Origin: a virus | Virus record (IMG/VR): IMGVR_UViG_3300028028_000001 | Coordinates: 32,739-96,738 of that record | Length of the DNA stretch: 64,000 nucleotides | Strand: one strand, 5' to 3' | Shown: in pieces, positions 1 through 17,039 of the stretch | How positions within the stretch are numbered: position 1 is the stretch's first letter | Layout of the letters: each line of letters starts with the position of its first letter | Translations under genes and position numbers: made by a program | Notes under the pieces: model-generated | What the model was told of the DNA's origin: nothing | The model's input: the letters and a program-made list of their open reading frames with translations, nothing else | Databases searched by the model: none

Positions 1-45
1 GAAGGGCACCGCTTCCTTTCGCGGGTCCATGCGGGCGGTGGGCAA

Positions 46-576
46 ATGGCCATCACCCAGGGCCATGCGGACGAGCCGCACGTCAAGAGGCTCCTTCGAG
101 AAAAGTTGATTCAACTCAAGAGGAACCCGGGTCACCACTGGAACGAGTACACGGCGCACCTCACGAAGGAGGGCACGAAGTACCATGAGGCCTATCGAGC
201 CGCGCACGAGCAGACAGGAAAGCAGGAGAGCCTGTTCAAGGGCGTGGTCTGCATCTACATGATCCGCAGTGACACGATGAGGAAAAGCATCCTTGAGAAG
301 GCGGTTATCCCGGCGCTCGACATGGTTCCGGAGGACTTGGAGGAAGACGCTACCCCGAACACCTGGACCGAGAACGGGTATACCGTCTCATGGCGACGGG
401 GCAAGCGCGGGCATGGGTCGGTTACCTTCGAAGGGAACGGGCTGGCTATGCCGTTCGTGATGACCGCTGCGGGCAAGAAGCACGCTCGGATCGTCGCAAG
501 GGACGCGTCGGCGCTGTTGGCGAAGGGCAAGATCCCGCTTCTTGACGGGGTATTCAGGATGCGGAGAAAGACATGA
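46..576 (+). CDS. hypothetical protein; carries QESLF pentapeptide (nt 223-237)
   Basis: 176-aa ATG ORF; stop overlaps next start (ATGA 573-576); no family recognised. Confidence 0.5.
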   Translation: MAITQGHADEPHVKRLLREKLIQLKRNPGHHWNEYTAHLTKEGTKYHEAYRAAHEQTGKQESLFKGVVCIYMIRSDTMRKSILEKAVIPALDMVPEDLEEDATPNTWTENGYTVSWRRGKRGHGSVTFEGNGLAMPFVMTAAGKKHARIVARDASALLAKGKIPLLDGVFRMRRKT

Positions 577-2384
577 ACCAGATCGCGAATCAGCCGGGCG
601 TTCATCTTGACCATTTGAAGCATAGGTGGGTTCGAGATGAGGACGTGAAACCAGGCACGCGGTTTTATGTGCCTCACCATGAGGAATTGGACGTTCGGTC
701 TGTCAAAGACGGGAAGGCAGAGGTGGGTTTGGTTGGCCACCCCATCACTGTGGACGTGCCTGAAAAGTCGGTGAAGTACTTTCATGCAGACATGCATGGG
801 CAGTTGAACCACAAGCCCGATAGTGGCAACGAGCATGTTGACGCCGTAATTAGAGGGGAGGGTGAACACCTCGGCAAGGGCAACGACGGGATCGTTTATC
901 GCCACGGGGAGAAAGTGGTCAAGGTCTCAACGACCGTCCCTTACCAGCCCTTCAACCGTGGGCAGCACAGGACTCCAGAGGAAGCCCTACGGCATCTTCA
1001 AAAGGAGCACGAGGCCCATACGGCACTCCAGGGGATTCCTGGCGTGCCCGAAGTGGATGGGCAAGAGCATGAGGGGCGATACTGGATGGTTAAGCCGCAT
1101 CTTTCGCCTACTGGCGTGGTCGATGAAAAAGAAGCACATCAGGTGCGCGATTCCGTCCGGGCCATGCACGCGAAGGGATGGGTTCTGGGCGATACCGTGC
1201 AGGTTGGCCGAGACAAGTCGGGCGGCATCCAGTTCATGGACCTCGGGTCTGCTCACAAGTCGGATAGCGACTACCAAAGAGAGCACGACGAAGAAAGGTT
1301 GGCCTCGTTCTTCCATCTTCATCGGTTGAAGTACACGGATCCCCCTGCTGAAGTACAGAAAAAGGAGCGGGTAGCACGCACTCTCCTGGACATGGCCATC
1401 AAACACCAGGATCCGGAAAAGGTCAGGGCGCATCGTATTGAGTGGAAACGACTGGCGAGCGAACACAGGATGAACCTCGTCAGAAAAGACGACTTCGACG
1501 GGATGATGGCGTTTGCGGACATTACCGATGCGATGGAGAAACGGCTTGAAAAGGCCATCTTCCTCAACGGCCAAAAGCGCAACCCCAAGGACTTCGACGA
1601 AGCCGCCCTATCTCAAGGCATCCGCGTGGAGATGGAGCACACCGACGATCCGAAGATCGCGATAGAGATCGCGATGGATCACCTTGCCGAGCGTCCGGAC
1701 TACTACGATCGGCTGGAAGAGATGGAAGCGAAGCCGATTCAAAAAGCCATCCTCTCCGGGATCCGCTTTATGTACCTACTACGCAAGTCTCAGCTCAACC
1801 TCTTCGACTGGCACGGCGAACCCGTCCAGCACGAGCACCGCGAGCCGATCCCCACCAGGCCACGCATGGGACCGGGCCCCCTGTTCGCCGAAGAGCGAGC
1901 GTCGGCGCCCGTGCATGCCCCGCTGCCCCCTATGCCTCCTCCGACCTCGCACACCTTCACCTCCAATATTCACGTCAAGAGCCACCTTCGGCGCCTGCCG
2001 TCGGGTGAAGTGGTGGAGGTAGCCGCGCACGAGAGAACAGCCGATCGGGTAACCCACGACGATCCGAAGCCCCGGCAGACGAAGATCACAGAGTACGCCG
2101 ACAAGCCGGCGCTCTTGAAGCCGCCTTCCATGGCACCGCAGCCCCGAGAGATGCCGAAGCCCTTCACGGAAGAGCAGTTAAAAGCGATTGGAGAGGCACG
2201 GGTGCGCCAAGAGGCGGCCGGCGGAACTCCGGGACAAGGAAGGCCCTGGGTACGATGGCCCAGCCAACCAGCGCCTCTCTGCTGCGAAAGCGGGGAGACT
2301 TGGGCCCGCGCACCGGGCAGCGGCAAAGAGCGCCCCGTGGACCTCGCAGGGCGTCCTGCTCCGATGGCAGCAACTGGCGATTGA
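573..2384 (+). CDS. large virion-module protein with protein-kinase-like domain, EHT..DHL..PDYY (DUF5661-like) segment, QLNLF motif and His/Arg module
   Basis: G-loop GKGNDGIV, VVKV lysine, HAKGWVLGD and FMDLG (DxG) at aa ~101-225; MEHTDDPKIAIEIAMDHLAERPDYY at aa 354-378; last 197 nt overlap next ORF in the +1 frame. Confidence 0.6.
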   Translation: MNQIANQPGVHLDHLKHRWVRDEDVKPGTRFYVPHHEELDVRSVKDGKAEVGLVGHPITVDVPEKSVKYFHADMHGQLNHKPDSGNEHVDAVIRGEGEHLGKGNDGIVYRHGEKVVKVSTTVPYQPFNRGQHRTPEEALRHLQKEHEAHTALQGIPGVPEVDGQEHEGRYWMVKPHLSPTGVVDEKEAHQVRDSVRAMHAKGWVLGDTVQVGRDKSGGIQFMDLGSAHKSDSDYQREHDEERLASFFHLHRLKYTDPPAEVQKKERVARTLLDMAIKHQDPEKVRAHRIEWKRLASEHRMNLVRKDDFDGMMAFADITDAMEKRLEKAIFLNGQKRNPKDFDEAALSQGIRVEMEHTDDPKIAIEIAMDHLAERPDYYDRLEEMEAKPIQKAILSGIRFMYLLRKSQLNLFDWHGEPVQHEHREPIPTRPRMGPGPLFAEERASAPVHAPLPPMPPPTSHTFTSNIHVKSHLRRLPSGEVVEVAAHERTADRVTHDDPKPRQTKITEYADKPALLKPPSMAPQPREMPKPFTEEQLKAIGEARVRQEAAGGTPGQGRPWVRWPSQPAPLCCESGETWARAPGSGKERPVDLAGRPAPMAATGD

Positions 2385-3081
2385 CCCTCGCCTGTTGGAT
2401 GATGAGTTCGCCGACGACTTCCCCGGATACAAGAGCCCGAAGCTCCAGGCGGTCATCCAGGCCACGAAGGACCACCTGACGAATCACCCCGAAACCGGCG
2501 CCGTGCTTTTCTGTGAGTACAACGGCGGGATTGAGGCGATGAAGTCGAGCCTGATCGAGGAAGGCTACCGCCCCGAGGACATCGGGGTCTATACGGGCAA
2601 GGTGTCAAGCCAGCGGAAACGGCGCGACCTTCAGAACGACCTGAACAGCGGCAAGATCAAGATCCTCCTTGGCAACACGGCGGCACTTGAGACGGGCGCG
2701 AACCTCCAGAAACGCGCTAACTTTGTCGCTCATCTCAACACGCCATGGGCCCCGGATCGGCTTGTCCAGTCAACCGGGCGAGTCCATCGGCAAGGGCAGG
2801 AACGGAAGGTTACCGTATTTCGCCCGACCGGATCCGAGGTAGAAGAACTCATCGAGCGCGTTGTCTCGCGCAAGCTCCTTCAATCCTCACAGGCGACCGG
2901 CGTAACGATGGCCGCTGACTCTCATGTAGCTGTCTCCATGCGCCGAAAGGGCCGCGAAAAGCTCGACTCCTCCACGATCGCGAAACTGCTGGGAATCGAC
3001 CCGTCGCTGTTGTCGCAGAAGGGCGATGAAGCAGAACGCGAGGCCGCAGAGATCAAGGAAATGAAGAAGAGGAAGAAATGA
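2188..3081 (+). CDS. SNF2/SF2 helicase C-terminal domain ORF, probably the 3' part of 573..2384 after a +1 frame change (stand-alone start would be TTG 2188 or TTG 2395)
   Basis: KILLGNTAALETGANLQ and HLNTPWAPDRLVQSTGRVHRQGQ (helicase motifs V-VI); LRWQQLAIDPRLL linker; hand-counted GC3 about 75 percent in this frame versus about 59 percent in the 573 frame over 2220-2384. Confidence 0.6.
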   Translation: MERHGCAKRRPAELRDKEGPGYDGPANQRLSAAKAGRLGPAHRAAAKSAPWTSQGVLLRWQQLAIDPRLLDDEFADDFPGYKSPKLQAVIQATKDHLTNHPETGAVLFCEYNGGIEAMKSSLIEEGYRPEDIGVYTGKVSSQRKRRDLQNDLNSGKIKILLGNTAALETGANLQKRANFVAHLNTPWAPDRLVQSTGRVHRQGQERKVTVFRPTGSEVEELIERVVSRKLLQSSQATGVTMAADSHVAVSMRRKGREKLDSSTIAKLLGIDPSLLSQKGDEAEREAAEIKEMKKRKK

Positions 3082-4799
3082 ACGACTCCGAAGCCACGAA
3101 TCTCCTGCGCGCCTTGGCCCCCGTCGGTGGGTCTCCTGGTGGGTTCGACCCCAAGAAGCGCCGCGTGCTCGTCATGCGGCTTCATCGGTATCTGGTGGAG
3201 GATGGCGGCTACATCCCAGCGTGGCTCAAGAACGAGGCGGCCGAGATGCGGAAGGGCGTGATCCTTTACGTCGAGTTGCACAAGGCCGCTCAACTTGGGC
3301 TCTTCGGTGGTCAGGGTCGGGAGTTTCGCCCGGAGGTGCCGAAGCCGCATGGTGGTGGTAAGCCTCGTGGGCCGCAGCAGACCGGGATGACCTCGGGCGG
3401 GCTCTTCGGCACGGTCTGGGTCAAGGACCATGATCGGGTGGTGAATGGGCACGTCGAGCACGTTGACGGTCATGAGAGGAAGGTGGTGGGGAATGTCCAC
3501 GCGCCCACGTTGACAGGAAAGGAGGAAGGTGGTAGGGTCGAGAGTGAACCTTCTCCGAAAGAGGAAAGCATGACCCGGCACCCTGACGCTCCGGAAGGAT
3601 TCGAACCGGTTGACATGTCCATTCATGGAGCCCATAAGGCACCATCGAACGAAAAGGGGCAACAGGGCTCTTTCAACTACTGGTATCCGACGCTGGAATC
3701 GGCTCGGGCAGGCCAGAAGCACCATGAAGAGCAGCAACGAGTAAAGGGGGATATGAAGCGGGCGCGGGAACATGAGAAGATCGCTCGCGGATCGGCAAAG
3801 TTCATTGAGGCTGAAACTCAACGAAGAGCAAAACTCGCGGCGGCAGAGATTCGGCGCACCGCTGTTCCTTTTGTTCACCCGAGTATCTATGAATATCGGG
3901 ACTACATCAGAGAGCAGGGTGGTTTCGTGGAAGATGGTGGGTGGAAGGTGCCAGCCGCAGCTCACGCCGCCATTACGGAGCACATCGAGGAGCGGAATCG
4001 GAAATTGGCCATCAAGCGCCAAACGAAGCCATCAGTAACCCCACCGGTTCCGGCCGCACTGAAATACATACCCATACAGCACTCGAACACCTACGACTAT
4101 CGGGAAGACATCAAGAAAGCCGGTGGTCGGTGGGACAATAACCAGCGGGTCTGGATGGTCCCGGAAAACAGGCATGCCGAACTAATCGCCAAGATGACGC
4201 CTGCGCCTGCGCCCCCTCCCGCAGCTCCTTTGCCGACGATCGCACCAGGAGAAAAGGAATACACCAGATTTGAGAATGGATCGCGTCGTATGAAGCCCGC
4301 TCATCCGTTGGCTGTCGGAGACGTGGTGTTTCGAGGGGATGGCGCAAACCGAACTTACCAGACGGTCACGAAAGTAAGGCCTTCGCTCTTCCGTTCCGAA
4401 AACGATCAGGAGGACTTTGGAGAAACCGGAAGAGGTGCAGGTTGGTATCATCCGTATACCGTTCGACCTGCTACTGAGGAGGAATCGGCCAACCTCCGCG
4501 GCAAGCACGCAGAAGCAGACGCAAAGGTCAAGGCTGCGACTGCCGCAAAAATGGCGCTACAGTCAGCCATCCAGACGGCGGAATATCCGAAGAAGGCTGA
4601 ACCATCAGGAGAGAGCATCAAGATTGGTCAAAATGAAACAATTCAGGTTGAGCCAGACCTTCAACACGCGTGGCACATCAAGTATAACGGTCGTGATGGC
4701 GACAACTGGGCCTACAACAACCTGGGCGGCCACTCGATCGCGCATCGGTTCCCAATGACTCCTGAACTATCAGGACACATCGAAGCGCTGAAAGTCTAA
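3078..4799 (+). CDS. large hypothetical protein with QLGLF motif, His/Arg module and two Y-x-Y-R-x-x-I-K-x-x-GG-x-W/F-D (DUF5710-like) repeats
   Basis: ATGA overlap with upstream ORF; repeats SIYEYRDYIREQGGFVEDGGWKVP (3873-3989) and NTYDYREDIKKAGGRWDNNQRVWMVP (4068-4196). Confidence 0.6.
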   Translation: MNDSEATNLLRALAPVGGSPGGFDPKKRRVLVMRLHRYLVEDGGYIPAWLKNEAAEMRKGVILYVELHKAAQLGLFGGQGREFRPEVPKPHGGGKPRGPQQTGMTSGGLFGTVWVKDHDRVVNGHVEHVDGHERKVVGNVHAPTLTGKEEGGRVESEPSPKEESMTRHPDAPEGFEPVDMSIHGAHKAPSNEKGQQGSFNYWYPTLESARAGQKHHEEQQRVKGDMKRAREHEKIARGSAKFIEAETQRRAKLAAAEIRRTAVPFVHPSIYEYRDYIREQGGFVEDGGWKVPAAAHAAITEHIEERNRKLAIKRQTKPSVTPPVPAALKYIPIQHSNTYDYREDIKKAGGRWDNNQRVWMVPENRHAELIAKMTPAPAPPPAAPLPTIAPGEKEYTRFENGSRRMKPAHPLAVGDVVFRGDGANRTYQTVTKVRPSLFRSENDQEDFGETGRGAGWYHPYTVRPATEEESANLRGKHAEADAKVKAATAAKMALQSAIQTAEYPKKAEPSGESIKIGQNETIQVEPDLQHAWHIKYNGRDGDNWAYNNLGGHSIAHRFPMTPELSGHIEALKV

Positions 4800-4801
4800 T
4801 C

Positions 4802-5080
4802 GTGCTGCTTCTTTTCGTTCTCCTCCTCTCCTGCGCCCCAGAACCGCCAGAAGTCTGCAATATGGTCTCCGTGCCCTGGGAGCGCTCGACGCTCAAGGCG
4901 ATCGAGGTTTACCTCGACTACCTGCCCTGTGAGGCCACGATCGGCTGCGAGTCGCTTAACGGGACCGTGACGATTTACGACCTGGAGCCCGTTTGCGGAG
5001 TCGCCTGCCGGGTATACGGATCCTGCCGCCCGGACGAAACGCCGCTGGAACTTCGATACTCCGCGTGCGACTGCTCATAG
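4802..5080 (+). CDS. small Cys-rich lipoprotein candidate
   Basis: GTG start; MLLLFVLLLSC signal with L-S-C lipobox-like end; 9 Cys in 92 aa; 3' end overlaps convergent methylase by 6 nt. Confidence 0.4.
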   Translation: MLLLFVLLLSCAPEPPEVCNMVSVPWERSTLKAIEVYLDYLPCEATIGCESLNGTVTIYDLEPVCGVACRVYGSCRPDETPLELRYSACDCS

Positions 5081-5887
5081 CAGCGTAGTTTGCTCCCGCT
5101 CCTCATCCTGGCCCATTGGCAGACCTATCTGAACGCCAGCGGCCTCGATGCTCTCCAACCTGCGCGCCGCGATGTCGAGATAAGCCGGCTCCGTCTCGAT
5201 CCCGATGTACTGGCGCCCAGAGAGTAATGCAGCCTCTCCGATGGCCCCAGAACCTGCGAAAGGGTCAAGGACCGTGCCGCCATGGGTCACGACGGAAACG
5301 AGCCACGCGCAGACCCTTGGGGGCTTTTCGGTGACGTGCTCGCGGTCCCTTGAAGACGCCTCGGTGACGTAACCGGGCAGGCAGCCGATCCCTGGTCTGT
5401 CGGTCGGCATCGGTCCAAGGGTTCCGACGGCGATGAATTCGCCCGGGTTCCAGAACCAGCCCATCCGAGGCCTTGACGATCCGGGAGGCTTCAACCACGG
5501 GTGGATCCCGCGAAGGATGAACCCGCCCACTTGGAGCGCATCACAGACCGCGCCAACCTGCCGCCAGTCGGAAAAGACGCATGCCGGACTGCCGGGGAGC
5601 ATGACCCGAGTCGCACGGGCCGCAATCTCCCCAAGCCAGATCGTGAAGGATCGCTGGTCTCGGTTGTCGCCTGCGAAGTTCGGAAGGTATTCGGCCTGCG
5701 CGGAATCGGAGCTGAGATACTTCTTGCGGGTGTCTAGCGTTCGATCACCACGGAAGGCACCCCCCGAAGAGTACGGGGGATCCGTGATCAGGGCGTCAAC
5801 GCGGACGCGTTCGCGTTCGAGATCCGCGAGTACGAACAGGGAGTCGCCGTTGTAGAGTTTCCAGGTCTTTCCTTGGGCGTGTAGCAT
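5075..5887 (-). CDS. DNA methyltransferase, beta-class N6-adenine/N4-cytosine type (DPPY)
   Basis: LITDPPYSSGG (motif IV) N-terminal to VLDPFAGSGAIGEAA (motif I), typical PF01555-like order. Confidence 0.85.
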   Translation of the reverse strand: MLHAQGKTWKLYNGDSLFVLADLERERVRVDALITDPPYSSGGAFRGDRTLDTRKKYLSSDSAQAEYLPNFAGDNRDQRSFTIWLGEIAARATRVMLPGSPACVFSDWRQVGAVCDALQVGGFILRGIHPWLKPPGSSRPRMGWFWNPGEFIAVGTLGPMPTDRPGIGCLPGYVTEASSRDREHVTEKPPRVCAWLVSVVTHGGTVLDPFAGSGAIGEAALLSGRQYIGIETEPAYLDIAARRLESIEAAGVQIGLPMGQDEEREQTTLL

Positions 5888-6052
5888 GGTGGAAGTGTAA
5901 CACGTTGCATGGAGAGGTCAAGGTGGCACGGTCTTTGCTACACCTTTCAGTGAAAGGAAAGACCATGGAAACCCTCATCGCGGCGGGATCGGCTCCGGCC
6001 ATCCTCATGTCGAGTTCTTCGTTCCCGTCTACCGAATCCACGCGAGCAAGCC

Positions 6053-6268
6053 ATGACCTGCCCCCGCTGCCACCAGCAATTCACCCCGACAGCAGAGGAG
6101 TCCAAGTGCCCCGACTGCGAGCGGGAGATCCTTCGTCGCAGGTACGAGATCGCCAGGATCCGCCGACATGGCGAGACCTGGCTTCTCGTCTCCCCGCGCC
6201 ATGTTCTCGCGGGTGGGTTCGCCTCGCGCGAGCAGGCCGAGAGGTTCCGTTCCGCCAGGGTGGGGTAG
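6053..6268 (+). CDS. small zinc-ribbon protein
   Basis: CPRC...CPDC pairs in 71 aa; no clear SD. Confidence 0.45.
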   Translation: MTCPRCHQQFTPTAEESKCPDCEREILRRRYEIARIRRHGETWLLVSPRHVLAGGFASREQAERFRSARVG

Positions 6269-6275
6269 ATCCGGA

Positions 6276-6773
6276 ATGGACCTCTTCAACCATCAAGGCG
6301 CCGTCTTCTCGGAGGATCGCGTCTACCGCTATCGGCTCTGGCGGCATCCTCCTGATACCCGGTTCGCCGCGTTCATCGGGCTCAACCCGAGCACCGCTGA
6401 CGAAACCCAGAACGACCCGACCGTGACCCGTTGTATCGGGTTCGCTCGGTCGTGGGGTCTTGCGGGCATGGAGATGTTGAACCTTTACGGGTTTCGCTCG
6501 ACGGATCCCGATCCGATGTTCAAGCACTCTGCTCCTATAGGACCGGGCAACGACGAGGCGATCCTGGCGGTCGCTCGTGAGGCGTCGATCGTGATCGGCT
6601 GCTGGGGCGCGTTTCCTCAAGCCCGCATCCGTGCTATCGAGGTTCATAGGATGCTTTCCTCTGCCGGTATCGTGCTTCATGCTCTGCAATTGACTTCGCA
6701 GGGTTGGCCTCGGCATCCTCTCTACCTCTGCCGAGACCGGGAGCCCTTTCCATGGAGGATCCCTGCGGGGTAA
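6276..6773 (+). CDS. DUF1643 family protein
   Basis: RVYRYRLWR, FIGLNPSTADETQNDPTVTRCIGFA, MLNLYGFRSTDP, GWPRHPLYL; ATG 6276 chosen because upstream part of ORF 6168.. overlaps 6053..6268. Confidence 0.75.
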   Translation: MDLFNHQGAVFSEDRVYRYRLWRHPPDTRFAAFIGLNPSTADETQNDPTVTRCIGFARSWGLAGMEMLNLYGFRSTDPDPMFKHSAPIGPGNDEAILAVAREASIVIGCWGAFPQARIRAIEVHRMLSSAGIVLHALQLTSQGWPRHPLYLCRDREPFPWRIPAG

Positions 6774-6799
6774 AGAGGTAACACCATTCGAGGGTTCCC

Positions 6800-9133
6800 A
6801 TGCACCTCTATCGCCCCGTTCGATCCGCTGACGGTTCTCTTTCGCTACGTGCCTCGGAACTGGTCTTCCGTCGCCCCGATGTGGCCCCCCGCGAGCTGCG
6901 CAAGGCCCTTCGTCTTCCGATCGGCATCGGCTGGCGTGACATCGACCAGGACGTGGACGGTGGCAAGGAGAAGAGGATCGTGGAGTGGGGAACGGTCTCC
7001 CGCTACTGGCCCTCACTCGAAGCCGCCATGGCCGCAGAACGGCGCTACCTGATCCTCGGGTCGCAGGATGACGGCTACGGGATTCCCCAGGTCGAGCGGC
7101 CCGGGTCGGTCCAGGCCTGGGAAGCACGGGAGCGCGCCCGTTCGGCTCATGAGATGGTGATCTACTACTCGCCCGACGGGTGGACGGCTCTTGCTGGTGA
7201 CGAGCACGGTGGGCAGGTCAAGGTGCTCGACGACTGCCGCGCGTACCGCTGGCCCTCGCTCATGGACGCGCTCTCTGCTGAGACGGCGTGGAGAGAGAAG
7301 GCGGACGCCGCGACCCTCAAACAGGTCCAGGCCGAAGCGCGCGGTGGAGAACCGAAGCCTTCGTTCTACGGTTACGGCGCGTTCATGGACGCGGCGCGGA
7401 AGTGTGCGGAGTTCATGGCGCTTGCGGATCCGGGTGTCGGGGCGCCTCTCGTTCGGTTCACGGTGGACCTTCGCAAGGCCGCTCAAATGGGGTTGTTCGG
7501 AGGGGAGACACGGATCCCGGAGCGGTCGCATCAAATGGGCCTCTTCGGTGGGACCGCGCACGTCAAGGCGCATACCCGGGTGGTCCATGGGCATGTGATC
7601 GAGGTGAAGGCCCATGATCGGGAGGTCGAGCATGGGGCGAACCATCCTCCCGAGGTGATGGGGCACTCGGCGCCGGGACATCGGGTGGATGTGGATGCGA
7701 AGGTGGCATGGCCAGAAGTCAAAGAAGGCAACCTGTACCGCATCCATTTCGACACCCGCGACGAAGGCCAGCCGCACGGCGACTATATCGCCAAACGAGC
7801 CTCGACGAATCATCACCAGTTCGAGAACCTTCTCAACGGCGCCCCCATGATGTTGAACCGGGATGCGGAAGGGCAGGGGAAGCACAGTCTGAGCGGCAAG
7901 GAAGGTGTCAGGATCCGAAGCGTTACAGGGTTTGAGGATGCTCTGGATGAGGCGAAAGCCAAGCATGAGATCATCCGAAAGGACGCGGAACGGGCGGCTT
8001 TGGCACCGAAGGTTGAGGAGAAGCCCTCCATTTCCGTCGATCCGGCCCAAATCGTCAAACCAGCGGACATTCAACCACCGGGCCCCATTCGTGACTACAC
8101 CGACATGAAGCCATCGGTCGGTATGAAGGTTCACGGGCACTACATGCGGTCACCCTTCACCGGCACGGTCCATAACATCGAATCCGACTCAAGCGGATAC
8201 CCTGGCACCCAGAACGATCGCAGGTTGTGGGTGAAACTTGATAGCCCCCTGGTGGTCCCGGAAGGTGATTCGTCATACCCCGCCGGTCACGTTCGGCGCG
8301 AGGCAGGGGAAAGCATCATTTTCCACGGGGAAAAACAGGCGTCAGGACATACACGGGTTCATCATGACACCCATCAAACCCTGGATTCGGTAGATAATCC
8401 GCTTCCTGGGTTGGTGCCCTTCGTAACAGACTACGATTCACGAAAGAAAACCCATACCCTGTCCGTGAACGGGAAGATGTCGAGCCATCCGACGCATGAA
8501 GCCGCGTTTGCTGCGGGGATGGAGGAGGTCAAGCCCACAACGCAACTTATCACCGAAGATGAGCTGAGAGAGCAGACCATCAAGCCCCCACCCAAGCCCA
8601 CCCTATCCGTCAAACCTGCGGAAATCGTTCAGGTTATACCGGGTATGGAGCACGAACATCCGGACTTTCCAGGCCACCGGTTGACCCGTGTGCAAACCCG
8701 GGAGAGGGACATCAGTTCCCGTGGTCGGGGACATGATTTATACACAATGATTGCCGGCCCAGAAGATGACACAATGCACTGGAGCGACAAGCATGTTGGC
8801 CATGAAGTAATTTCGGACGATTATCCAAGGTCAAGGTCCATACGATCAAGCGATAGACATGGTGAAACCTATGCGCATATGCCGCTCAAGCCCGGTAGTG
8901 TGATTATGCGTCTCAAAAAGAATACCGACGGGACAACCCAGAAGTCTGCGTTAGTTGTTCCGGAAAGTGGAGGAGACACATACCCAAGACACAAAGATCA
9001 ACCACTGGACGCCGATAGTTTGCCGTCTGCAACGGTAACCTCACGCAAAGCGGCTACTGGATGGGAAACTGTAGTAGATATCCCCGAAGGGATATCGGGT
9101 GTCAAGGCTGGTAAGCGAATTTACCGAGGATAG
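6800..9133 (+). CDS. large hypothetical virion-module protein with two QMGLF motifs and His/Arg module
   Basis: 777-aa ORF; KAAQMGLFGG (7484-7498) and HQMGLFGG (7532-7546) then AHVKAHTRVVHGHVIEVKAHDRE; internal duplication RYWPSLEAAM / YRWPSLMDAL; AT-richer 3' end. Confidence 0.6.
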   Translation: MHLYRPVRSADGSLSLRASELVFRRPDVAPRELRKALRLPIGIGWRDIDQDVDGGKEKRIVEWGTVSRYWPSLEAAMAAERRYLILGSQDDGYGIPQVERPGSVQAWEARERARSAHEMVIYYSPDGWTALAGDEHGGQVKVLDDCRAYRWPSLMDALSAETAWREKADAATLKQVQAEARGGEPKPSFYGYGAFMDAARKCAEFMALADPGVGAPLVRFTVDLRKAAQMGLFGGETRIPERSHQMGLFGGTAHVKAHTRVVHGHVIEVKAHDREVEHGANHPPEVMGHSAPGHRVDVDAKVAWPEVKEGNLYRIHFDTRDEGQPHGDYIAKRASTNHHQFENLLNGAPMMLNRDAEGQGKHSLSGKEGVRIRSVTGFEDALDEAKAKHEIIRKDAERAALAPKVEEKPSISVDPAQIVKPADIQPPGPIRDYTDMKPSVGMKVHGHYMRSPFTGTVHNIESDSSGYPGTQNDRRLWVKLDSPLVVPEGDSSYPAGHVRREAGESIIFHGEKQASGHTRVHHDTHQTLDSVDNPLPGLVPFVTDYDSRKKTHTLSVNGKMSSHPTHEAAFAAGMEEVKPTTQLITEDELREQTIKPPPKPTLSVKPAEIVQVIPGMEHEHPDFPGHRLTRVQTRERDISSRGRGHDLYTMIAGPEDDTMHWSDKHVGHEVISDDYPRSRSIRSSDRHGETYAHMPLKPGSVIMRLKKNTDGTTQKSALVVPESGGDTYPRHKDQPLDADSLPSATVTSRKAATGWETVVDIPEGISGVKAGKRIYRG

Positions 9134-9136
9134 CCC

Positions 9137-12100
9137 ATGTTCACCCCCTGCAAGTGCTCCAAAGGCTGCAAGGCCCACGCCATCATCACAGCGCTCGACA
9201 TGGACGGGACCACCTACCCTGTGCGAGTCCCCTATGAGCACCGCTACTCCTCGATCGGCTGGGGCGACCGTCCGCGCGTGCGGTTCGGTGATTCCGTAGC
9301 CGTCGAAGTGGCGCGCGGAGAGAAGGGCGTCCAGGCTCTTGACGAACTCGGCAACCTTCACCGGTTGAACCATGGCGCGTTCTCCACCTGGATTCCGGAA
9401 AGGAAGGGCAAGGCTCTCAAAAAGGCGGAAGTCAAAGCCGGTCAACGATGGATCACGGTCCACCCCGGCGGCGAAGGCTCAACGGGCGTCCCCATCCTGA
9501 TTCAGGAGGAGAAGGACGGAACCCACCGAGTCGTGGCAGGCGCGGGCGGGAAACTGACGCACCTCCGGCTTGAGAACGTCAAGAGCGCGGACGAATACGC
9601 CAAGTCCAAAGCCGACAAGAAGGCCGCAAAGAAAGAGAAGGACAAGACCGCTCCGAAGGAAGTCAAGGAGACCAAGAAGGAAGCCCACGAGAAGAAGCGC
9701 GAGGCCGAGCGCCAGTTCGTCAAAAAGGTGAGCACGAAACTCGGGGGAGTCTCCGAGGATCGCAAGCGTGACGAATCCGAATCTCCCGCCGTCGCACGTC
9801 GGCTTGACGCGCAGCATCATCGAAAGCAGGTCAACGAGGCCAAGAAGCGCGCCCACGGAGCCATGCAGGCGGTCGTTGCAGAGCGGACCGGGCAGGAGAG
9901 GGCAAAGGCGCTCACCTCCGAGGATACTCCCGAGGTCTCCGCTCACGTTCAGGAAACGATTCGCGCAGAACTCGACGACGAGGAAGCCGCTCAGAAGGCG
10001 CGCAAGGAAGCCCGCGCGCCAAAGATGATGGCCTCCCGGGCCGTGGACCCCGGAGCGCAAGAGAAAGCCGTCGTCCATGCCGTTGAAGCGGTCAAGCAGG
10101 CCCCTGAGCAGCTCGACAAGACACTTGAAGCGCTCGGCGGGCGTACTGACTCGGGCGAGGTTCTCCGGCTCTCTGTCGTGCCTGCCGTGGAGGCGAAACG
10201 CCGGTCCCTGCAAGCGCTCCAGGACGCCCAGATCATCCATGAAGCCCTATCGAACGGGCCCCCGAAAGACGAGAAGCAGCAGGCGATCGTGGAGCAGGCC
10301 CTGGGCGGCGCGAAACTCGGAACCGAGGAGGCCAAGGAAGCACTCCAGACCGCCATGGTCTCGAAGGTCAACGAAGCCGAGCGGCACGAAGTCCAGTCCA
10401 GGAAGCTCGACCAGATCGCACGGGACAAGGGCGAAGACGTGGCCGACCGTGCTCTCCGGGCGACCGACGCGGCAAGGGCCATCGCTCGCGAAACACAGGA
10501 AGCGCGGCGCCTGGGACTCGACAATCCCGAGAAGACGCCCCTTACTGTGCCTGAAACCGATGAACTCATGGACGTGGTGAAGGACCTCCAGGACCTGAAA
10601 GCGAAGACCCGAGCCCTGAAGAACGTCGTCAAGGACGCGGAAAAGGGCAACTTCGATCGGTCGCGCCGTGCGTTCAAGATGGACGTTCAAGCGGCCCCCA
10701 AAGACGTGGAGATGTCGATCGAGGAAGAGGTTCAGCGCTCACTCACGGAGCAGCTCCTCGGCGCGGTCAAGACCGATCGCCCGGAGTACATCCAGGGCGT
10801 CACCGCTGGGCACTATGACGCCCTCGCGGATGTCGGCTTGCAGATTGGCGGCCAGCGCTACCTGGACCGCCCCACGGTGGACGCTCTCGGCGCGAAGAAT
10901 GCCGCGATCCTACTCCGGTATGGGCTTGACCAGGACGGGCACGATATGGACGCCGTTCGCCAGGCCGTGGAAGAGTCGCACGTTGACGCGGTGAAAACCG
11001 AAGCCGCCAAAGCCATCGAGAAAGCGCGATCCTACGTCCCTGGGTTGGTCCACGAAGTCGATACAACCGAAGACGCCGAAGCAGCAATGGCGCACTTGGA
11101 CGCCCACGAATCCGAGATCGTCTCAGCGCAGAAGGCCCTTTCCTCGGCGATCGGGAGGCTCGAAGGTACGGCTACCCTTGGCCAGGCGCTGCGCGACAAG
11201 ATGCCCGATAGCCTTTCCGTTCGGGGCACCTCTCTTGAATCGTCTCAGCAGTGGGTTCATTCGCTCGGGCTTCACCCTGCCGATTACGAGGTGAACGCTG
11301 CACGGAACGAGATTACGATCCCCCGCCGATCGTGGGACAAACTGCTATCCCGAGACTCGCGCGAGGACATCGACAACCGGCGCGTGGTCAACGAGATCAA
11401 GGCAGGTCAGCACGACATCAAGGGTTGGCTTCCTCCCGGCATTGCCTATCGAGAGGCCTCCACGTTCACCGCGCCCGTTCCCAGCGCTCCTCGCATGTGG
11501 GAACCGCTTTCGTTCGATGGCGACCTCGACGAGGCCATCAAGACACACGTCGGCGCCCGGTTGGCATCCGGTGAGCATATCGGGGAGATTGCGTCTGACA
11601 TCTCCTCGGAAGGTGTTGCTTCGCAGGCCCCGAGCGCGAAGGAATACCGCGCGGCACTCGAGCGGCACTTCCCTCTCTACAAGGAAGGTGGAAAGGAACG
11701 GCTCACCGAAGCCCTGGCGGCTCTTGGACCTCGGCCGGAGAACGAGAACGAGGCGATCGAGTGGGACCGAAAAGCCATTAAGGCGGAGCAAGCGGAAAAG
11801 GTAGGCCTGACGCACTTCGCCGACAAGTGGGAGTCCTGGGCCCAGGACTACATGGAAAAGAAGCACGGTGGCGAGGGAGCCTATCACTCGCAGAACCTGC
11901 ATCCCGAGGACGTGGCGACCCGTGAGGCCATTTTCCGGACGCTGGCGGATCACCCGGAGGGCAAGATCGCCTTCAAGCCGTCGGGTCAACTGACACCGCA
12001 GGAAGAGGGGGTGATTCGGGACCGGTACTATCAGAGGATGGGGATCGACCCGAAGGTGAAGGTTGACGAGGCAAGGTTCCAAAGGGAGATGGCCCAGGCC

Positions 12101-14839
12101 AGTATGCCGGAAGGGCAGTGGGAGACCATGGTCAAGGAACACGAAGGAGAAGGCATAACTCCAGGGCAGGCCAAGGCCCGAGCCATGTCTCACCTTGGAG
12201 AGAAGGTCAAGAATGAGGCGTATTACCAAGAACTGACGAAACCATGGGACAAGACGGCTGGAACTGCATCTATAGACGAACCAAAGGATGTAAAACAACG
12301 TCGCCAATACCTGACGCGCGAACTCGCCGCACTCGGGAAAGAGCCCGACCGCCAAGACAAAGAGGCCAACCAGAAATGGCAAGAAGCGCGTAATGCTGTT
12401 TTTGAAAAGGCCGACACCGATTCTGGCAAGGAAGAACTTGATGAGACCAGTCCCGAATACCGGGCTTGGCAAAAACGACGTGATGCTGTTCTTGCCCGTC
12501 ATCCGCGAGCGGGTATGCAAAGCGCAATCGATAGTCTCGACAAAGCCGATCCGGAGTACGCAAGCAAAGTCGAAGCCATCAAACAGGACGCAGCGACCGC
12601 CCCCACCGCCTGGGGCAACTACGTTGAAGCGCACGGTTCGCGGCAACTGGCGATCGAGGCCCTGCAAGATGAGATGAGGGGCGAATTCGTCAAGACGTAC
12701 CAGGAGCACCACGGAAAGGTCACCGGGAACCCGCTACGGGTGGGCGTTCAGGACGTAACCAACAAGGCGCGCCATATCCGGGCAACAGGATCCCCCGAGG
12801 AAATCGCGCAAGCCAGGGCAGAGGAAAGGTCCAGGCTATCCAGTCTCCAGAAGAGGCAGGGCGGCGGATTTACCGAGATGGGCGGTGCAGGGTCGGCGAA
12901 AGCCCTGTTCACAAAAGCACTTGAACAAGACGAAATCGACAAGTCAAGTCAACTCGCTATGTTCGGATCGGCTACCTCCTCGGTGGCGGACCTCCCCGAA
13001 AAGAAGATCGAGCCGAAGACCGGCCAGCGGTGGAGTCTCGGAACCCGCGCGGAATCGCAACTTGAGAGCGTCATCAATGGCGGCCTGGGCCAGCAGTTTC
13101 AACCAGGAAGCCCGATCCGGCTTTTCGGTGGGCTCAACATGGATGGCGATCGAATCCACCAGCAGCGGGTTCTTCGCCAACTCGATCGGGTCAAAAGGAT
13201 GGCGGCGCTTCTCGGCACGGGCGCGGGGAAGTCGCTCACCTCGATCGCAGGGTTCACCCAGGCGCACGCGAAGGGTGAGGCATCCCACGGGCTCTATCTG
13301 GTCCCTGCCGCAGTCCAAGACCAGTTCGGCGGCGAGATGTTGCGCTACACGCAGCCCGGGAAATACAACTGGGCAACGGGTGGCGGAAAGAGCCACGCGG
13401 AACGGGTACGGATGCTCAAGGATCCGTCTATTCATATGCGGGTTATGACACACCAGTCCTTCCGGGATACTGCCCTAAAACTCATGGCAGACCACCATGG
13501 TCGGACTACCGAGAAGATGACAGAGGACTTCGGAAAGGCAGACCCAAAGACCCGCGCCCGGTGGATGCGTGAGGCCTTCGATGCCCACGGGATCCCCCGC
13601 CACTTCGTCTATTATGACGAGGCGCACACCGCGACCTCCGAGAACGAGAAGAGCGCCTCTCTGACTCATGACGTTGCGACGGCGGTAACGCATCCGTCGA
13701 ACGCTACCCATCTGCTTCTCGGGACCGCCACCCCCACGAAGAACAACACCGGAGAGATGCACTCATGGGCCTCGCTACTCGATCCGGACAAGTACGCCGA
13801 TCGGTGGAAGTTCATGCAGAACTTTGGGAGGGAAACCGCCTGGAACCCGAACGCGATCCGTCAAGAACTTGGGCACCGGGTTTACACCGCCAGAATCGAC
13901 CCCGAAGGAGTATCCCGAACAGACACCGACAACCCGACCGTGGAGGAAAAGGAAGTCCAGACTGGTGAGAATATGTGGGGTCCAACCTACGAAAAGCAGA
14001 AGGTGAAGTCTGCCGGCAAGCCGATCGAACTTCACCCTACCCAGAAGGCCCGGGTAGATGAGATCACGGCGGCTTATGAGCAGGCATCCACCTCGTTCAA
14101 GAAGGGCCATGTGGACGTGGAGAGCATCCGGAAAATCAACCCGGCACCGTTCGAGGGTAAGACCGATGAGCAGGCCCAAAGCATCGCGCGGAACATGATG
14201 AAGGGCCTTGGCTTCACCCGTGACGCGGCGCTGGAGCGGGCGATCAACCGCTCGCCTGTGGGCCAGAACGCGAAACTGGACGCCCTGGCCTCTGTCGTCC
14301 AGCATGACCTCGCGCAGAACTGGACCGATCGGAAAGGCAACGCGCGCAAGGGGAAGGCCTCGATCATCTTTTCGGACTCGGCGCAGGATGGAAAACTCAT
14401 CAACCAGCACCTTCGCTCTCTTGGCGTCCGCTCGGCTTTCTATCACGGTGGGCTTCCGAACGAGCAGAAAGAAGCCATCCGCACCGGGTTCCAACCCGAG
14501 CAAGGCGAGCCGAAGCACGACGTTATCGTCGCCACGTCGGCGGCCGAGGCGGGTCTGAACCTCCAACGGGCAAGCGTGCTGCACAATTACGACGTGCCCC
14601 AGACTGAGAAGAGCCACGCGCAGAGAGCCGGGCGAGCGTACCGGCAGGGGCAACTTGGCGACGTGGAGATTCACAACTGGCACACGAACACGGCGTTCGA
14701 GCGTCGGGCGCTTCAACTGCTCAAGGAGAAGCGGTATCTCGCTTCCGTGTTTCAGACTCCGATCGGCCATATGGACGACACAGGAACGGGCCTGCGTTAT
14801 ACTCGGATCATCTCACGCAAACATGAGGCTGCGGCATGA
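9137..14839 (+). CDS. giant (1900 aa) polyvalent-type protein with C-terminal SNF2-family helicase
   Basis: GTGAGKS (13214-13234), DEAH (13616-13627), LLLGTATPTKNN, helicase-C motifs VIVATSAAEAGLNLQ and HAQRAGRAYRQGQ; long helical N-terminal ~1300 aa; QLAMF at 12950-12964. Confidence 0.8.
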   Translation: MFTPCKCSKGCKAHAIITALDMDGTTYPVRVPYEHRYSSIGWGDRPRVRFGDSVAVEVARGEKGVQALDELGNLHRLNHGAFSTWIPERKGKALKKAEVKAGQRWITVHPGGEGSTGVPILIQEEKDGTHRVVAGAGGKLTHLRLENVKSADEYAKSKADKKAAKKEKDKTAPKEVKETKKEAHEKKREAERQFVKKVSTKLGGVSEDRKRDESESPAVARRLDAQHHRKQVNEAKKRAHGAMQAVVAERTGQERAKALTSEDTPEVSAHVQETIRAELDDEEAAQKARKEARAPKMMASRAVDPGAQEKAVVHAVEAVKQAPEQLDKTLEALGGRTDSGEVLRLSVVPAVEAKRRSLQALQDAQIIHEALSNGPPKDEKQQAIVEQALGGAKLGTEEAKEALQTAMVSKVNEAERHEVQSRKLDQIARDKGEDVADRALRATDAARAIARETQEARRLGLDNPEKTPLTVPETDELMDVVKDLQDLKAKTRALKNVVKDAEKGNFDRSRRAFKMDVQAAPKDVEMSIEEEVQRSLTEQLLGAVKTDRPEYIQGVTAGHYDALADVGLQIGGQRYLDRPTVDALGAKNAAILLRYGLDQDGHDMDAVRQAVEESHVDAVKTEAAKAIEKARSYVPGLVHEVDTTEDAEAAMAHLDAHESEIVSAQKALSSAIGRLEGTATLGQALRDKMPDSLSVRGTSLESSQQWVHSLGLHPADYEVNAARNEITIPRRSWDKLLSRDSREDIDNRRVVNEIKAGQHDIKGWLPPGIAYREASTFTAPVPSAPRMWEPLSFDGDLDEAIKTHVGARLASGEHIGEIASDISSEGVASQAPSAKEYRAALERHFPLYKEGGKERLTEALAALGPRPENENEAIEWDRKAIKAEQAEKVGLTHFADKWESWAQDYMEKKHGGEGAYHSQNLHPEDVATREAIFRTLADHPEGKIAFKPSGQLTPQEEGVIRDRYYQRMGIDPKVKVDEARFQREMAQASMPEGQWETMVKEHEGEGITPGQAKARAMSHLGEKVKNEAYYQELTKPWDKTAGTASIDEPKDVKQRRQYLTRELAALGKEPDRQDKEANQKWQEARNAVFEKADTDSGKEELDETSPEYRAWQKRRDAVLARHPRAGMQSAIDSLDKADPEYASKVEAIKQDAATAPTAWGNYVEAHGSRQLAIEALQDEMRGEFVKTYQEHHGKVTGNPLRVGVQDVTNKARHIRATGSPEEIAQARAEERSRLSSLQKRQGGGFTEMGGAGSAKALFTKALEQDEIDKSSQLAMFGSATSSVADLPEKKIEPKTGQRWSLGTRAESQLESVINGGLGQQFQPGSPIRLFGGLNMDGDRIHQQRVLRQLDRVKRMAALLGTGAGKSLTSIAGFTQAHAKGEASHGLYLVPAAVQDQFGGEMLRYTQPGKYNWATGGGKSHAERVRMLKDPSIHMRVMTHQSFRDTALKLMADHHGRTTEKMTEDFGKADPKTRARWMREAFDAHGIPRHFVYYDEAHTATSENEKSASLTHDVATAVTHPSNATHLLLGTATPTKNNTGEMHSWASLLDPDKYADRWKFMQNFGRETAWNPNAIRQELGHRVYTARIDPEGVSRTDTDNPTVEEKEVQTGENMWGPTYEKQKVKSAGKPIELHPTQKARVDEITAAYEQASTSFKKGHVDVESIRKINPAPFEGKTDEQAQSIARNMMKGLGFTRDAALERAINRSPVGQNAKLDALASVVQHDLAQNWTDRKGNARKGKASIIFSDSAQDGKLINQHLRSLGVRSAFYHGGLPNEQKEAIRTGFQPEQGEPKHDVIVATSAAEAGLNLQRASVLHNYDVPQTEKSHAQRAGRAYRQGQLGDVEIHNWHTNTAFERRALQLLKEKRYLASVFQTPIGHMDDTGTGLRYTRIISRKHEAAA

Positions 14840-15000
14840 AGATGAGAAAGAAAAAAGTAGACTTCTCAGCGGTAATCCGGCCAGTCAAAGAAGAAACTTC
14901 CTCGCACTTCGGATCGCGTGTCGTCGATATACGGTGTGTAGATTTCTCGGTTGACTCGATCCGTGCGTTTATCAAGCGGATGGAGCAGGAACCACTATGA
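14836..15000 (+). CDS. small ORF (54 aa) not in the ORF track
   Basis: MKMRKKKVDFSAVIRPVKEE...; ATGA overlaps at both ends (14836-14839 and 14997-15000); AT-richer than surroundings. Confidence 0.4.
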   Translation: MKMRKKKVDFSAVIRPVKEETSSHFGSRVVDIRCVDFSVDSIRAFIKRMEQEPL

Positions 15001-15239
15001 ACGACCGACAAGAGATGATCAAACTCCTCGCGTCTCTGGAGGCCAACAAGCAGGCAATCCAGGGCGCAAGAAAGGACCTGGCCCGGGAATGCTCCGAGCG
15101 TCAGGATGCCGTGTCTCCTGCCCTGGAAACGATCGGCGAGCACCCCGACATGGAAGACGCGGGGATCCTCGGGCACCGCTACCACAAGACGATTCTGGCC
15201 GATCACCATGCGCTTGGCGAACTGGCGCGCCGTGGCTGA
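14997..15239 (+). CDS. hypothetical protein
   Basis: 80-aa ATG ORF coupled to flanking ORFs. Confidence 0.5.
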   Translation: MNDRQEMIKLLASLEANKQAIQGARKDLARECSERQDAVSPALETIGEHPDMEDAGILGHRYHKTILADHHALGELARRG

Positions 15240-15468
15240 CCTGTCGGCGTTCAAGATCCGATGTCCTGCCTGCGGTTACGATATGTGGGCCGTGCGCGCG
15301 GGTCAGTGGACGCTCAAAACCGCTATTATCCGGGTGGACGACGGGGTCTTCATTGCACGATGCCCAGAAGGGCGGTGCAAAGGTGAAGCCGTGGTCCCGA
15401 TGGTTCTCCTGCACTCCGACGCTACCCGCCGAATTGTGAGAATTCGAAAAAACAGCGCTGAGGTATAG
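15232..15468 (+). CDS. small zinc-ribbon protein
   Basis: GTG 15232 overlaps upstream stop (GTGGCTGA); CPACGYDM...CPEGRC; alternative ATG 15208. Confidence 0.45.
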   Translation: MADLSAFKIRCPACGYDMWAVRAGQWTLKTAIIRVDDGVFIARCPEGRCKGEAVVPMVLLHSDATRRIVRIRKNSAEV

Positions 15469-15506
15469 CCGGGCAGTCTGGTCCGAACCTCTCACGGCCC
15501 ACCCAC

Positions 15507-15547: not shown

Positions 15548-15555
15548 TGGTACTC

Positions 15556-17008: not shown

Positions 17009-17039
17009 TCCCATCCCAACCCCACAAGGACAAAACACC

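Follow-up and report, generated by a model that had tools for sequence, protein, structure and literature searches.

Clamp-like pentapeptides ahead of the major head protein

We analysed a stretch of 64,000 nucleotides, hereafter the window, from the IMG/VR virus record IMGVR_UViG_3300028028_000001 (positions 32,739 to 96,738 of that record), with attention to six pentapeptides, here called tags, that resemble the motifs by which bacterial proteins bind the beta sliding clamp. The window is a segment of a phage genome with 60% GC and with baseplate and tail genes, and the metagenome-assembled genome contig of about 96.7 kb that carries it is labelled Thermoleophilia. The late genes lie on the plus strand from position 1 to about 35 kb, with the tail and baseplate genes after the major head protein (MCP), and the minus strand holds a replication and nucleotide module with an SF2 helicase, ThyX, DnaN, a DNA methyltransferase and a Holliday-junction resolvase. 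A megablast search of window positions 1-20000 against cultured phages gave no match, that is, no near relative at the DNA level. The open reading frames (ORFs) that carry the tags, with lengths in amino acids (aa), and the landmarks downstream of them are as follows.

-794 to 576, plus strand: ORF of 456 aa in full, with its N-terminus upstream of the window start (in-window part from 46)
223-237, plus strand: QESLF, in the 456-aa ORF ending at 576
573-2384, plus strand: ORF of 603 aa with a DUF5661 domain (Pfam)
1791-1805, plus strand: QLNLF, in ORF 573-2384
3078-4799, plus strand: ORF of 573 aa
3291-3305, plus strand: QLGLF, in ORF 3078-4799
6800-9133, plus strand: ORF of 777 aa
7484-7498 and 7532-7546, plus strand: QMGLF twice, in ORF 6800-9133
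9137-14839, plus strand: ORF of 1900 aa, SNF2 helicase
12950-12964, plus strand: QLAMF, in ORF 9137-14839, in the linker that immediately precedes the SNF2 helicase domain
13157 to 14755, plus strand: SNF2/DEAD-type helicase domain, the cargo domain after the QLAMF linker (Pfam Helicase_C and SNF2-rel_dom; PHROG 62; confident AlphaFold model)
16899-18641, plus strand: MCP, downstream of the tagged ORFs

A sequence-only reading of this DNA had listed the six pentapeptides, and all of them translate as it claimed and are in frame with long ORFs. It had described the carriers as consecutive giant ORFs, which does not hold: with 456, 603, 573, 777 and 1900 aa they are not all giant, and their succession is interrupted by a Helicase_C-only ORF, a small ORF, a minus-strand N6_N4 methyltransferase gene and a DUF1643 gene. 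Its estimate that fewer than one Q-x-x-[LM]-F would arise by chance agrees with our shuffling of the 4619 residues of eight ORFs, in which Q..[LM]F was expected 0.37 times and observed six times, and Q[LM].[LM]F was expected 0.03 times and observed five times; in 2000 shuffles the observed count was never attained. Strict matches in the remainder of the 64 kb are confined to non-coding frames. Two further candidates were rejected: MSQQMLF at 52195 on the minus strand, which had the look of a clamp motif at the N-terminus of a protein on the replication side, falls within the DNA methyltransferase gene 51336-52364 but outside its reading frame, and QGDLF at 59224 on the minus strand sits in the frame with lower third-position GC of two overlapping frames.

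The shared context K-[AS]-[AS]-Q, also proposed earlier, is present in four copies and is missing from the copy at 7532 (R-S-H-Q) and from that at 223 (TGKQESLFKG). Five of the six copies fit the pattern Q-phi-x-[LM]-[FL], in which phi is aliphatic; the exception is QESLF, which has Glu at position 2 and neither an adjoining strand nor a hairpin of the kind described below. QESLF is identical to the clamp motif of M. smegmatis DinB1, which is suggestive only, and as the weakest copy it probably stands outside the system and should be dropped unless homologues support it. The DNA copies of the surrounding module share about 76% identity over 41 nt and differ at synonymous positions, with no long repeats, which indicates that their likeness is kept at the protein level and does not stem from recent duplication.

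Conservation of the tag and of the module around it

Judged by its homologues, QLAMF is the window copy with the best evolutionary support. We found 76 homologues of the 1900-aa helicase, 71 of them comparable after BLAST anchoring on the helicase domain, and counted motifs in the 70-residue stretch ahead of that domain. The strict motif is present in 37 of the 71 homologues against 1.2 by shuffling, and the relaxed form Q..[LMF][FLW] in 60 against 4.7. In an alignment of 28 sequences (A3), Q1272 and F1276 belong to only 37 invariant columns, together with Walker A, DEAH and motif VI, and the motif forms an invariant island in a variable linker; since the members of this alignment were mostly chosen as motif-bearing, the count over 71 homologues is the unbiased figure. 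The profile of the family reads Q-x-Q-[MGLI]-[GSA]-[LMF]-F-[GSA]. Over 60 homologues, Q is found in all 60, position +3 is L, M or F, position +4 is F in 53, L in 6 and W in 1, and position +2 is mostly small and not fixed (G in 30, S in 12, A in 6). The last five residues of the protein are the strict motif (Qxx[LM]F-COOH) in nine homologues and the relaxed form in 15, and the C-terminal forms seen are QDGLF, QPGLF, QGGLF, QNSLF, QANLF, QESMF and QHSLF-COOH. These C-terminal copies, like those ahead of the helicase domain, come without strand and hairpin.

In the AlphaFold model of aa 1151-1900, built with the A3 alignment and having a mean predicted local distance difference test (pLDDT) score of 83, the motif lies at the end of a low-confidence helix, and the QLAMF segment, with pLDDT below 50, separates two confident domains. 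The motif is conserved in homologues, and it is found not within folded cores but in linkers that are disordered or modelled with low confidence, the two points that the sequence-only reading had proposed to check. Non-conservation, burial in folds and a role as a mere cleavage site, which it had named as outcomes that would speak against the proposal, were none of them found. The helicase family also has a strongly conserved N-terminal element, LxKA..AGQRWITVHPNG..KGVPVLI..DGTHRVIGGAGGKLNHLRL in the A3 consensus (window 9137 to about 9700, aa about 100-150), which in the Rhodovastum protein is preceded by the strand PIVLFLKA; this element may be an expanded, tag-less form of the strand-hairpin unit to which we now turn.

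In ORFs 573, 3078 and 6800, named here by their first positions, a recurrent module of about 45-100 aa includes the tag as one of its pieces. The first piece is a short hydrophobic strand with an [RH]K[AS][AS] end (GIRFMYLLRKS, VILYVELHKAA and LVRFTVDLRKAA). The second is the tag with GG or DW, followed by a spacer rich in Gly and Pro, in which a further GLF(G), at times without the Q, is often present. The third is a basic hairpin of two VxVKxHxR strands, IHVKSHLRRLPSGEVVEVAAHER, VWVKDHDRVVNGHVEHVDGHER and AHVKAHTRVVHGHVIEVKAHDR in ORFs 573, 3078 and 6800, with the full pattern VxVKAHxRR(T/S)K(T/S)G..VxxHxR. All of these lie on the plus strand.

1758 to 1811, ORF 573-2384: strand and tag, GIRFMYLLRKS-QLNLF-DW, directly after the DUF5661 domain
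1965 to 2042, ORF 573-2384: basic HxR beta-hairpin NIHVKSHLRRLPSGEVVEVAAHERTA
3258 to 3311, ORF 3078-4799: strand and tag, VILYVELHKAA-QLGLF-GG (repeat family D1)
3390 to 3488, ORF 3078-4799: second GGLFG, then HxR hairpin VWVKDHDRVVNGHVEHVDGHERKVV at 3414-3488 (repeat family D2)
7448 to 7552, ORF 6800-9133: strand and tag, LVRFTVDLRKAA-QMGLF-GG, with a second QMGLF-GG 16 residues on
7553 to 7639, ORF 6800-9133: HxR hairpin or beta-meander TAHVKAHTRVVHGHVIEVKAHDREVEHG

In ORF 573-2384, the Pro-rich linker ahead of the hairpin holds a second, Q-less GPLF. The flanks of the tag are rich in Gly, Pro and Ala, and the module copies of the window are all internal (aa 61, 217, 396 and 1272). The spacers between the three pieces range from 0 to about 60 residues, so that strand, tag and hairpin are only about 10 residues apart in the short-linker versions, and the order of the pieces can be permuted, as in gp49 of Bordetella phage vB_BbrM_PHB04 (PHB04). 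An AlphaFold model of the module of ORF 6800, based on a shallow alignment, gives both QMGLF stretches a pLDDT below 50 and the hairpin four short strands with a pLDDT of about 75. We infer that the basic hairpin is a beta-ribbon binding nucleic acid or a partner; its RRTKTG turn recalls the DNA-binding arm of HU and IHF. In relatives the hairpin reads VHVKAHVRRTKTGAVAHVRQHQR, and it is also found tag-free, after the ChaB-like N-terminus of the 456-aa ORF (contig L001 2407-3777, aa about 52-72).

The module has no counterpart in Pfam, where its sequences matched no family at E values up to 10. The complete ORF 6800 matched only itself among 5.8 billion proteins and nothing in IMG/VR when searched by peptide patterns, and tblastn with ORFs 6800 and 3078 gave no match in cultured phages. 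ORFs 573, 3078 and 6800 lack whole-protein homologues, and it is the module itself that recurs in relatives. With module peptides, tblastn against cultured phages matched PHB04 only. A profile of the three window modules, run against 1.84 billion representatives, returned mostly low-complexity and zinc-finger noise together with two real extra carriers, P0083 and P0087, and a profile of eight module sequences had no match in the set of 5.8 billion proteins, the query being too short for the word index. The module is apparently a conserved, undescribed unit, without a Pfam family and unmentioned in the polyvalent-protein literature that we searched. The tag-bearing peptides that we single out are RKAAQMGLFGGE, RKAAQMGLFGGETR, KSQLNLFDWHGE and DKSSQLAMFGSAT as well as PHB04 MIILLTKAQLALFDTPV, KAQLALFDTP and the C-terminal ...QDGLF and ...EEQHSLF.

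Cultured relatives of the helicase are found in PHB04, in the Thermus phages Lalka, Cumys and phiMa, and in Morganella phage Mecenats66. The gene order of PHB04 is portal, small ORFs, gp27 (2097 aa), the Ulx-like gp26, the helicase gp25, protease and MCP. gp27 is a true homologue of P1 DarB (E 1e-52 and 2e-42), and its extra N-terminal region opens with the module as a leader, MIILLTKAQLALFDTPVHVGAHVRKDGTVVKPHIRIQKV...QGSLFAEPP. Far from the head genes, the hypothetical gp49 (L009 5564-6319, minus strand) has strand and hairpin first and then QLALF, and gp50 beside it (L009 6470-7486), a stand-alone DNA methyltransferase, ends in ..SPSPQAELFGSVA (QAELFGSVA). In Cumys the order is helicase, small ORF, protease, scaffold-like gene and MCP, and the helicase carries RQKQMALFGGEPGQG before its helicase domain. 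The C-terminus QLKFLGLE of the Cumys scaffold-like protein was tried as a shared coat-binding motif and rejected, being absent from the corresponding proteins of six other relatives. The DarB-like protein of Thermus phage Lalka27b (L095 5029-11289) starts with MDLVRLYQELLAKAEQPALF and is adjoined by an Ulx-like gene, with SSB and a LexA-like gene as further neighbours; its disordered N-terminal region holds QPALF and two QPTLW about 23 residues apart. The module is also carried by a phage-plasmid helicase of Rhodovastum, away from head genes.

In metagenomic loci the module occurs repeatedly, often as the very N-terminus of stand-alone ORFs (MGLVRLIVDLTKARK..PGPGQLSLFGGG; VTRRLVLRKAQLDLFGPRETTVHQHQRRSAHGAVETVTQHQR; MLRVMILAKAAEQLGLFGAPAPVHVKAHVRRTKTGAVAHVRQHQR; MPVRIFVRMLLSAEQLAMFGG...) and between the domains of polyvalent proteins with InPase, DUF5661, ART-PolyVal, LPD1 or DNA methylase; the cargo domains of the relatives are InPase, ART-PolyVal, LPD1, DNA methylase and Zeta_toxin. 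Carriers of an N-terminal tag are PHB04 gp27, the Lalka27b DarB-like protein and loci L008, L010, L011, L017, L084, L097 and L121. Over the window and the relatives, the module copies read QLGLF, QLSLF, QLALF, QLDLF, QLNLF, QLAMF, QMGLF and QIGLF. On a contig from a Myxococcota bin (L121 603-3245), three identical QLGLF stand 30-50 residues apart in a disordered N-terminal region.

We surveyed 80 IMG/VR loci for tag enrichment by comparing observed with expected counts. The longest ORFs, which are helicase or DarB-like ORFs, hold 83 tags against 17.0 expected, and the upstream ORFs 27 against 8.8; the downstream structural ORFs show no enrichment, with 39 against 31.7. For the strict pattern with flanks, the observed and expected counts are 28 and 1.3 in the longest, 11 and 0.4 in the upstream, and 6 and 2.7 in the downstream ORFs. 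A tag lies within the first 35 aa in 18 of 69 longest ORFs versus 1 of 851 downstream ORFs. Contigs with the motif are binned to Pseudomonadota, Myxococcota, Cyanobacteriota, Chloroflexota, Spirochaetota and Acidobacteriota, in addition to the Thermus phages, and in GTDB genomes the same leaders are found on contigs binned to many phyla.

Proposed docking to the sliding clamp and competing explanations

Our preferred reading, in which we place a little less than even confidence, is that the pentapeptides are a conserved clamp-docking motif on effectors. Q-[LMIV]-x-[LM]-F, in most cases with a Gly after it, would be a short linear docking motif in flexible leaders and linkers; its carriers would be a Dar-like set of polyvalent effectors encoded between the portal and the prohead protease and MCP genes; and its likeliest partner would be the peptide-binding pocket of the beta sliding clamp. 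For most relatives the clamp in question would be that of the host; here it could be the DnaN that the phage itself encodes. Every effector unit, whether helicase, methyltransferase or another, would be tethered to clamp-loaded DNA after synthesis or ejection, with the hairpin perhaps binding the DNA and the tag the clamp. The tagged proteins may be packaged, as synteny and DarB homology suggest.

Known clamp ligands follow the Dalrymple consensus QL[SD]LF; QLGLF is the clamp motif of E. coli Pol II, QADMF that of Pol III alpha, and Hda also binds the clamp. Clamp-binding motifs (CBMs) are defined as Q-phi-x-[LM]-[FL], where any residue may fill position 3 and QLxLF peptides bind most strongly; they occur in C-terminal tails, disordered N-termini and loops, and QLNLF is the motif of Pol V (UmuC) (PMC11139829). 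The module copies match this definition position by position, with the same fixed and free positions, and the tags are placed as CBMs are, in disordered N-termini, internal linkers and extreme C-termini; CBM proteins, too, can have several copies per protein. Mobile elements use the clamp as well, for example phage Mu through MuC, and so do TnsE of Tn7 and transposases of insertion sequences. That the motif is kept on contigs binned to distant phyla would agree with a receptor conserved universally. Genes away from head genes carry the module too (PHB04 gp49, the Lalka27b DarB-like protein and the Rhodovastum phage-plasmid helicase), and of its carriers the SNF2 helicase and the DarB-like methyltransferase would suit action on DNA at or behind replication forks, while DUF5661, InPase, ART-PolyVal, HATPase-like and unknown units would not obviously do so. 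The interpretation is plausible and unproven, and it survives every computational test that we ran. Full-text searches of the literature found no paper that links clamp motifs with packaged, polyvalent or antirestriction phage proteins, in line with the earlier remark that no description of such a link was known to its author.

The earlier statement that the element encodes its own DnaN is borne out, and this candidate receptor extends over a longer frame than first given.

54986-56161, minus strand: beta sliding clamp DnaN, candidate receptor of the motif, with all three Pfam beta-clamp domains

It is a genuine beta clamp, and in the PDB it is matched best by beta clamps of bacteria (E 4e-38). 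In the pocket segments that we compared (TDGSRL, FPPYRRVLP, NVVY and the C-terminal MPIRL), it differs from the PDB clamp 4tr8 by two substitutions, H to S (TDGSRL versus TDGHRL) and M to I (MPxRL), and it keeps most of the pocket residues compared. If a GTG start is used, DnaN gains an N-terminal extension of about 35 residues.

Several observations weigh against clamp docking. The tag sits on unrelated cargo without evident need of a clamp (DUF5661, InPase, ART-PolyVal, HATPase-like and LPD1 units), is absent from the replication genes of the window, where it is confined to the head-proximal cargo cluster, and shows no enrichment among the roughly 850 structural ORFs downstream. Its companions, a hydrophobic strand and a hairpin, have no counterpart in known CBMs, and second copies are often Q-less (GGLFG, PGLFG and GPLF). 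We judge copies 7-16 residues apart too close to fill both pockets of one clamp. The variants QMGFF and Qxx[L]W occur, and a Trp in the final position makes for weaker binding in E. coli (PMC11139829). PHB04 has the module, and no dnaN is annotated in the listed 92 kb or so of its 94-kb genome, which makes the tie to a phage's own DnaN weak. The reading also offers no route by which a clamp would come onto freshly ejected duplex DNA. Compared with CBM proteins, moreover, the carriers here are head-proximal DarB-like or polyvalent effectors and not replication or repair enzymes, and the embedding between strand and hairpin and the Q-less, closely spaced repeats set the tags apart.

With slightly more reserve, we extend the clamp-docking proposal to a widespread group of phages of about 50-100 kb, several of them annotated as myoviruses: their head-associated DarB-like effectors, equipped with near-optimal clamp peptides and a basic hairpin and either delivered together with the phage genome or produced alongside it, could latch onto the host or phage clamp, either keeping antirestriction and other effectors on phage DNA in cis or titrating the host clamp at infection. 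If clamp binding is true, the antidefence effectors that phages deliver would rank with polymerases, repair enzymes and transposases among the clients of the clamp, whose protein-docking site is the most conserved one in bacteria; this could explain the protection of DNA in cis by Dar-type systems and would provide a natural class of clamp-pocket ligands.

Functionally diverse cargo and a frequently N-terminal leader make capsid targeting a serious rival, if on balance an unlikely one. On this explanation the module is an address label that docks the effectors inside the assembling prohead, where the scaffold, the capsid interior or a Dar/Ulx-like adaptor could be the receptor, and the likeness to clamp motifs is coincidental. 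A packaging signal was half of the alternative offered by the sequence-only reading, and three observations fit it about as well as they fit clamp docking: the functionally unrelated cargo, the frequent N-terminal leader, and the accompanying strand and hairpin, for which clamp docking has no need. The C-terminal copies speak against the other half, a mere protease site. The tagged genes lie between the portal and the prohead protease and MCP genes in the window, PHB04, Cumys and metagenomic relatives. The order of portal, cargo, protease and MCP in PHB04, with its Ulx-like gene, agrees with the earlier suggestion that the carriers sit where packaged proteins lie. In the window itself, polyvalent-type domains (SNF2 helicase, DUF5661 and a weak DUF5710) all stand beside virion genes upstream of the MCP; the link to DarB is a similarity at the level of the helicase only (PHROG 62, and PHROG 10089 for ORF 2188-3081), and no Ulx-like gene was identified in the window.

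In P1, the N-terminal 30 residues of DarB direct capsid entry, and residues 6-10 are needed for packaging (PMC9024508). DarB homologues carry the module at this same end, among them PHB04 gp27, a true homologue with an Ulx-like neighbour, and N-terminal leaders are common in the longest ORFs of our survey. A heterogeneous cargo is expected of an address label, and multiple copies and Q-less GLFG repeats would suit multivalent binding to a lattice. Residues 3-9 of P1 DarB, KLSMGVF, are loosely like K-A-Q-L-A-L-F. However, the DarB of phage D6, 53% identical to that of P1, has HSISE in place of MGVFR, and the other P1 Dar proteins have no motif; KLSMGVF was accordingly rejected as a homologue of the tag. 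Capsid targeting also leaves the position-by-position match to the clamp motif to coincidence, and it has to accommodate both the copies that lie off the head module and the pre-helicase and C-terminal copies without strand or hairpin. We found no virion proteomics for any member of the group.

The comparison with known packaging and effector systems is two-sided. The capsid-targeting signal (CTS) of T4 and the DarB signal of P1 are, like the module, short and often N-terminal leaders on proteins encoded with head genes, one label serving varied cargo, and the module is present on DarB homologues (PHB04 gp27 and Lalka27b). In contrast to these signals, the tag is also internal and C-terminal and is conserved on contigs binned to many phyla; the T4 CTS is unrelated in sequence to the tag, and no significant sequence similarity was seen between the tag and either signal. 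Encapsulin cargo-loading peptides are short, made of hydrophobic and small residues, attached by Gly/Pro-rich tethers at a protein end and sometimes repeated, and they dock cargo in a shell of HK97 fold. They have a GSL-type consensus and are not of phage origin, so that the parallel is an analogy only. As in polyvalent proteins (PMC5512222) and the P1 Dar system, multi-domain effectors with InPase, ART-PolyVal, LPD1, DUF5661, N6 methylase and SNF2 helicase stand beside virion genes, and the relatives share with P1 Dar the Ulx-like neighbour and the DarB homology. Unlike polyvalent proteins, the units of the window are mostly separate mid-sized ORFs instead of one giant protein, and P1's own Dar proteins are tag-less. 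The polyvalent-protein paper of Iyer et al. 2017 mentions neither a clamp nor a linker module (PMC5512222). If the capsid label is true, it would be the first case of a packaging signal shared by phages found in many bacterial phyla, and it would offer a practical means of bringing foreign proteins into phage heads. On both readings, strand-QLxLF-hairpin is a sequence marker for cargo units in uncharacterised phage genomes, and the cultured pairs of B. bronchiseptica with PHB04 and of Thermus with Lalka or Cumys make the question directly testable.

It is improbable, in our estimation, that the tag docks to some other partner, such as a non-clamp protein of the host, a chaperone or adaptor of the phage, or a receptor at the portal or tail channel that recognises an ejection or translocation leader, with the hairpin holding the proteins on DNA. 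The motif behaves as a conserved short linear motif, strand and hairpin are unexplained by the clamp model, and acidic, Pro-rich tails ending in LF-COOH recall other C-terminal tails that recruit proteins. The data nevertheless point to no specific candidate, and the clamp motif matches the tag better than any other motif that we can name.

Still less probable is a processing site of the prohead protease, at which the module would mark polyprotein cuts or the removal of a leader. The module does lie between the domains of polyvalent proteins and at the N-termini of stand-alone ORFs, a protease gene follows the cluster in relatives, and a cut after F would, speculatively, give the ...QxxLF-COOH ends that are natural to some helicases. 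The nine homologues that end in the strict motif, however, leave nothing to cleave, so that cleavage cannot be the sole role of the motif. Genes outside the head module bear the tag as well, and the known prohead-protease sites that we considered differ, the P1 MCP being cut at E|S (PMC9024508).

We give hardly any credence to a partner-free origin, either as structural residues of a small beta domain or as a chance or compositional pattern: strand, tag and hairpin do co-occur closely in the short-linker versions, but variable spacing, permuted order, stand-alone copies and low model confidence disfavour a purely structural role, and the shuffling results exclude chance.

Neighbouring genes of the cargo cluster

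The genes that interrupt the tagged ORFs are the following.

2188 or 2395 to 3081: Helicase_C-only ORF of 228-297 aa, with a PHROG 10089 match for 2188-3081 and no N-terminal RecA-like lobe
4802-5080, plus strand: small ORF between tagged ORFs
5075-5887, minus strand: N6_N4 DNA methyltransferase, within the cargo cluster
6168-6773, plus strand: DUF1643 gene, within the cargo cluster

The N6_N4 methyltransferase and the DUF1643 gene, both in the middle of the cargo cluster and both without a tag, look like inserted morons. The C-terminus of ORF 573-2384 is a Pro/Gly/Trp-rich tail that is seemingly out of frame and overlaps the Helicase_C-only ORF in another frame; together they could stem from a DarB-like helicase that has decayed or undergone a frameshift, or from an error of assembly. 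In ORF 3078-4799, aa about 270-375 contain two elements of the type YxYRxxIKxxGGxWD, one of which is a weak DUF5710 match (23.6 bits against a cut-off of 26.5 bits), and outside this DUF5710-like element the ORF matches nothing anywhere.

Directly upstream of the window lies an ORF of at least 780 aa (L001 1-2340) that is rich in Thr, Ala, Gly and Val and has a repeat-like sequence. It has the look of a fibre or decoration protein and not of a portal, and the gene order before the cargo cluster thus differs from that of PHB04. The small ORF 4802-5080, when read from its upstream GTG, starts with VLLLFVLLLSCAPEPP, a sequence similar to the lipobox-containing signal peptides of lipoproteins, and the metagenome gene caller puts the start later, at 4862. 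Read from the GTG, this ORF may encode a superinfection-exclusion lipoprotein.

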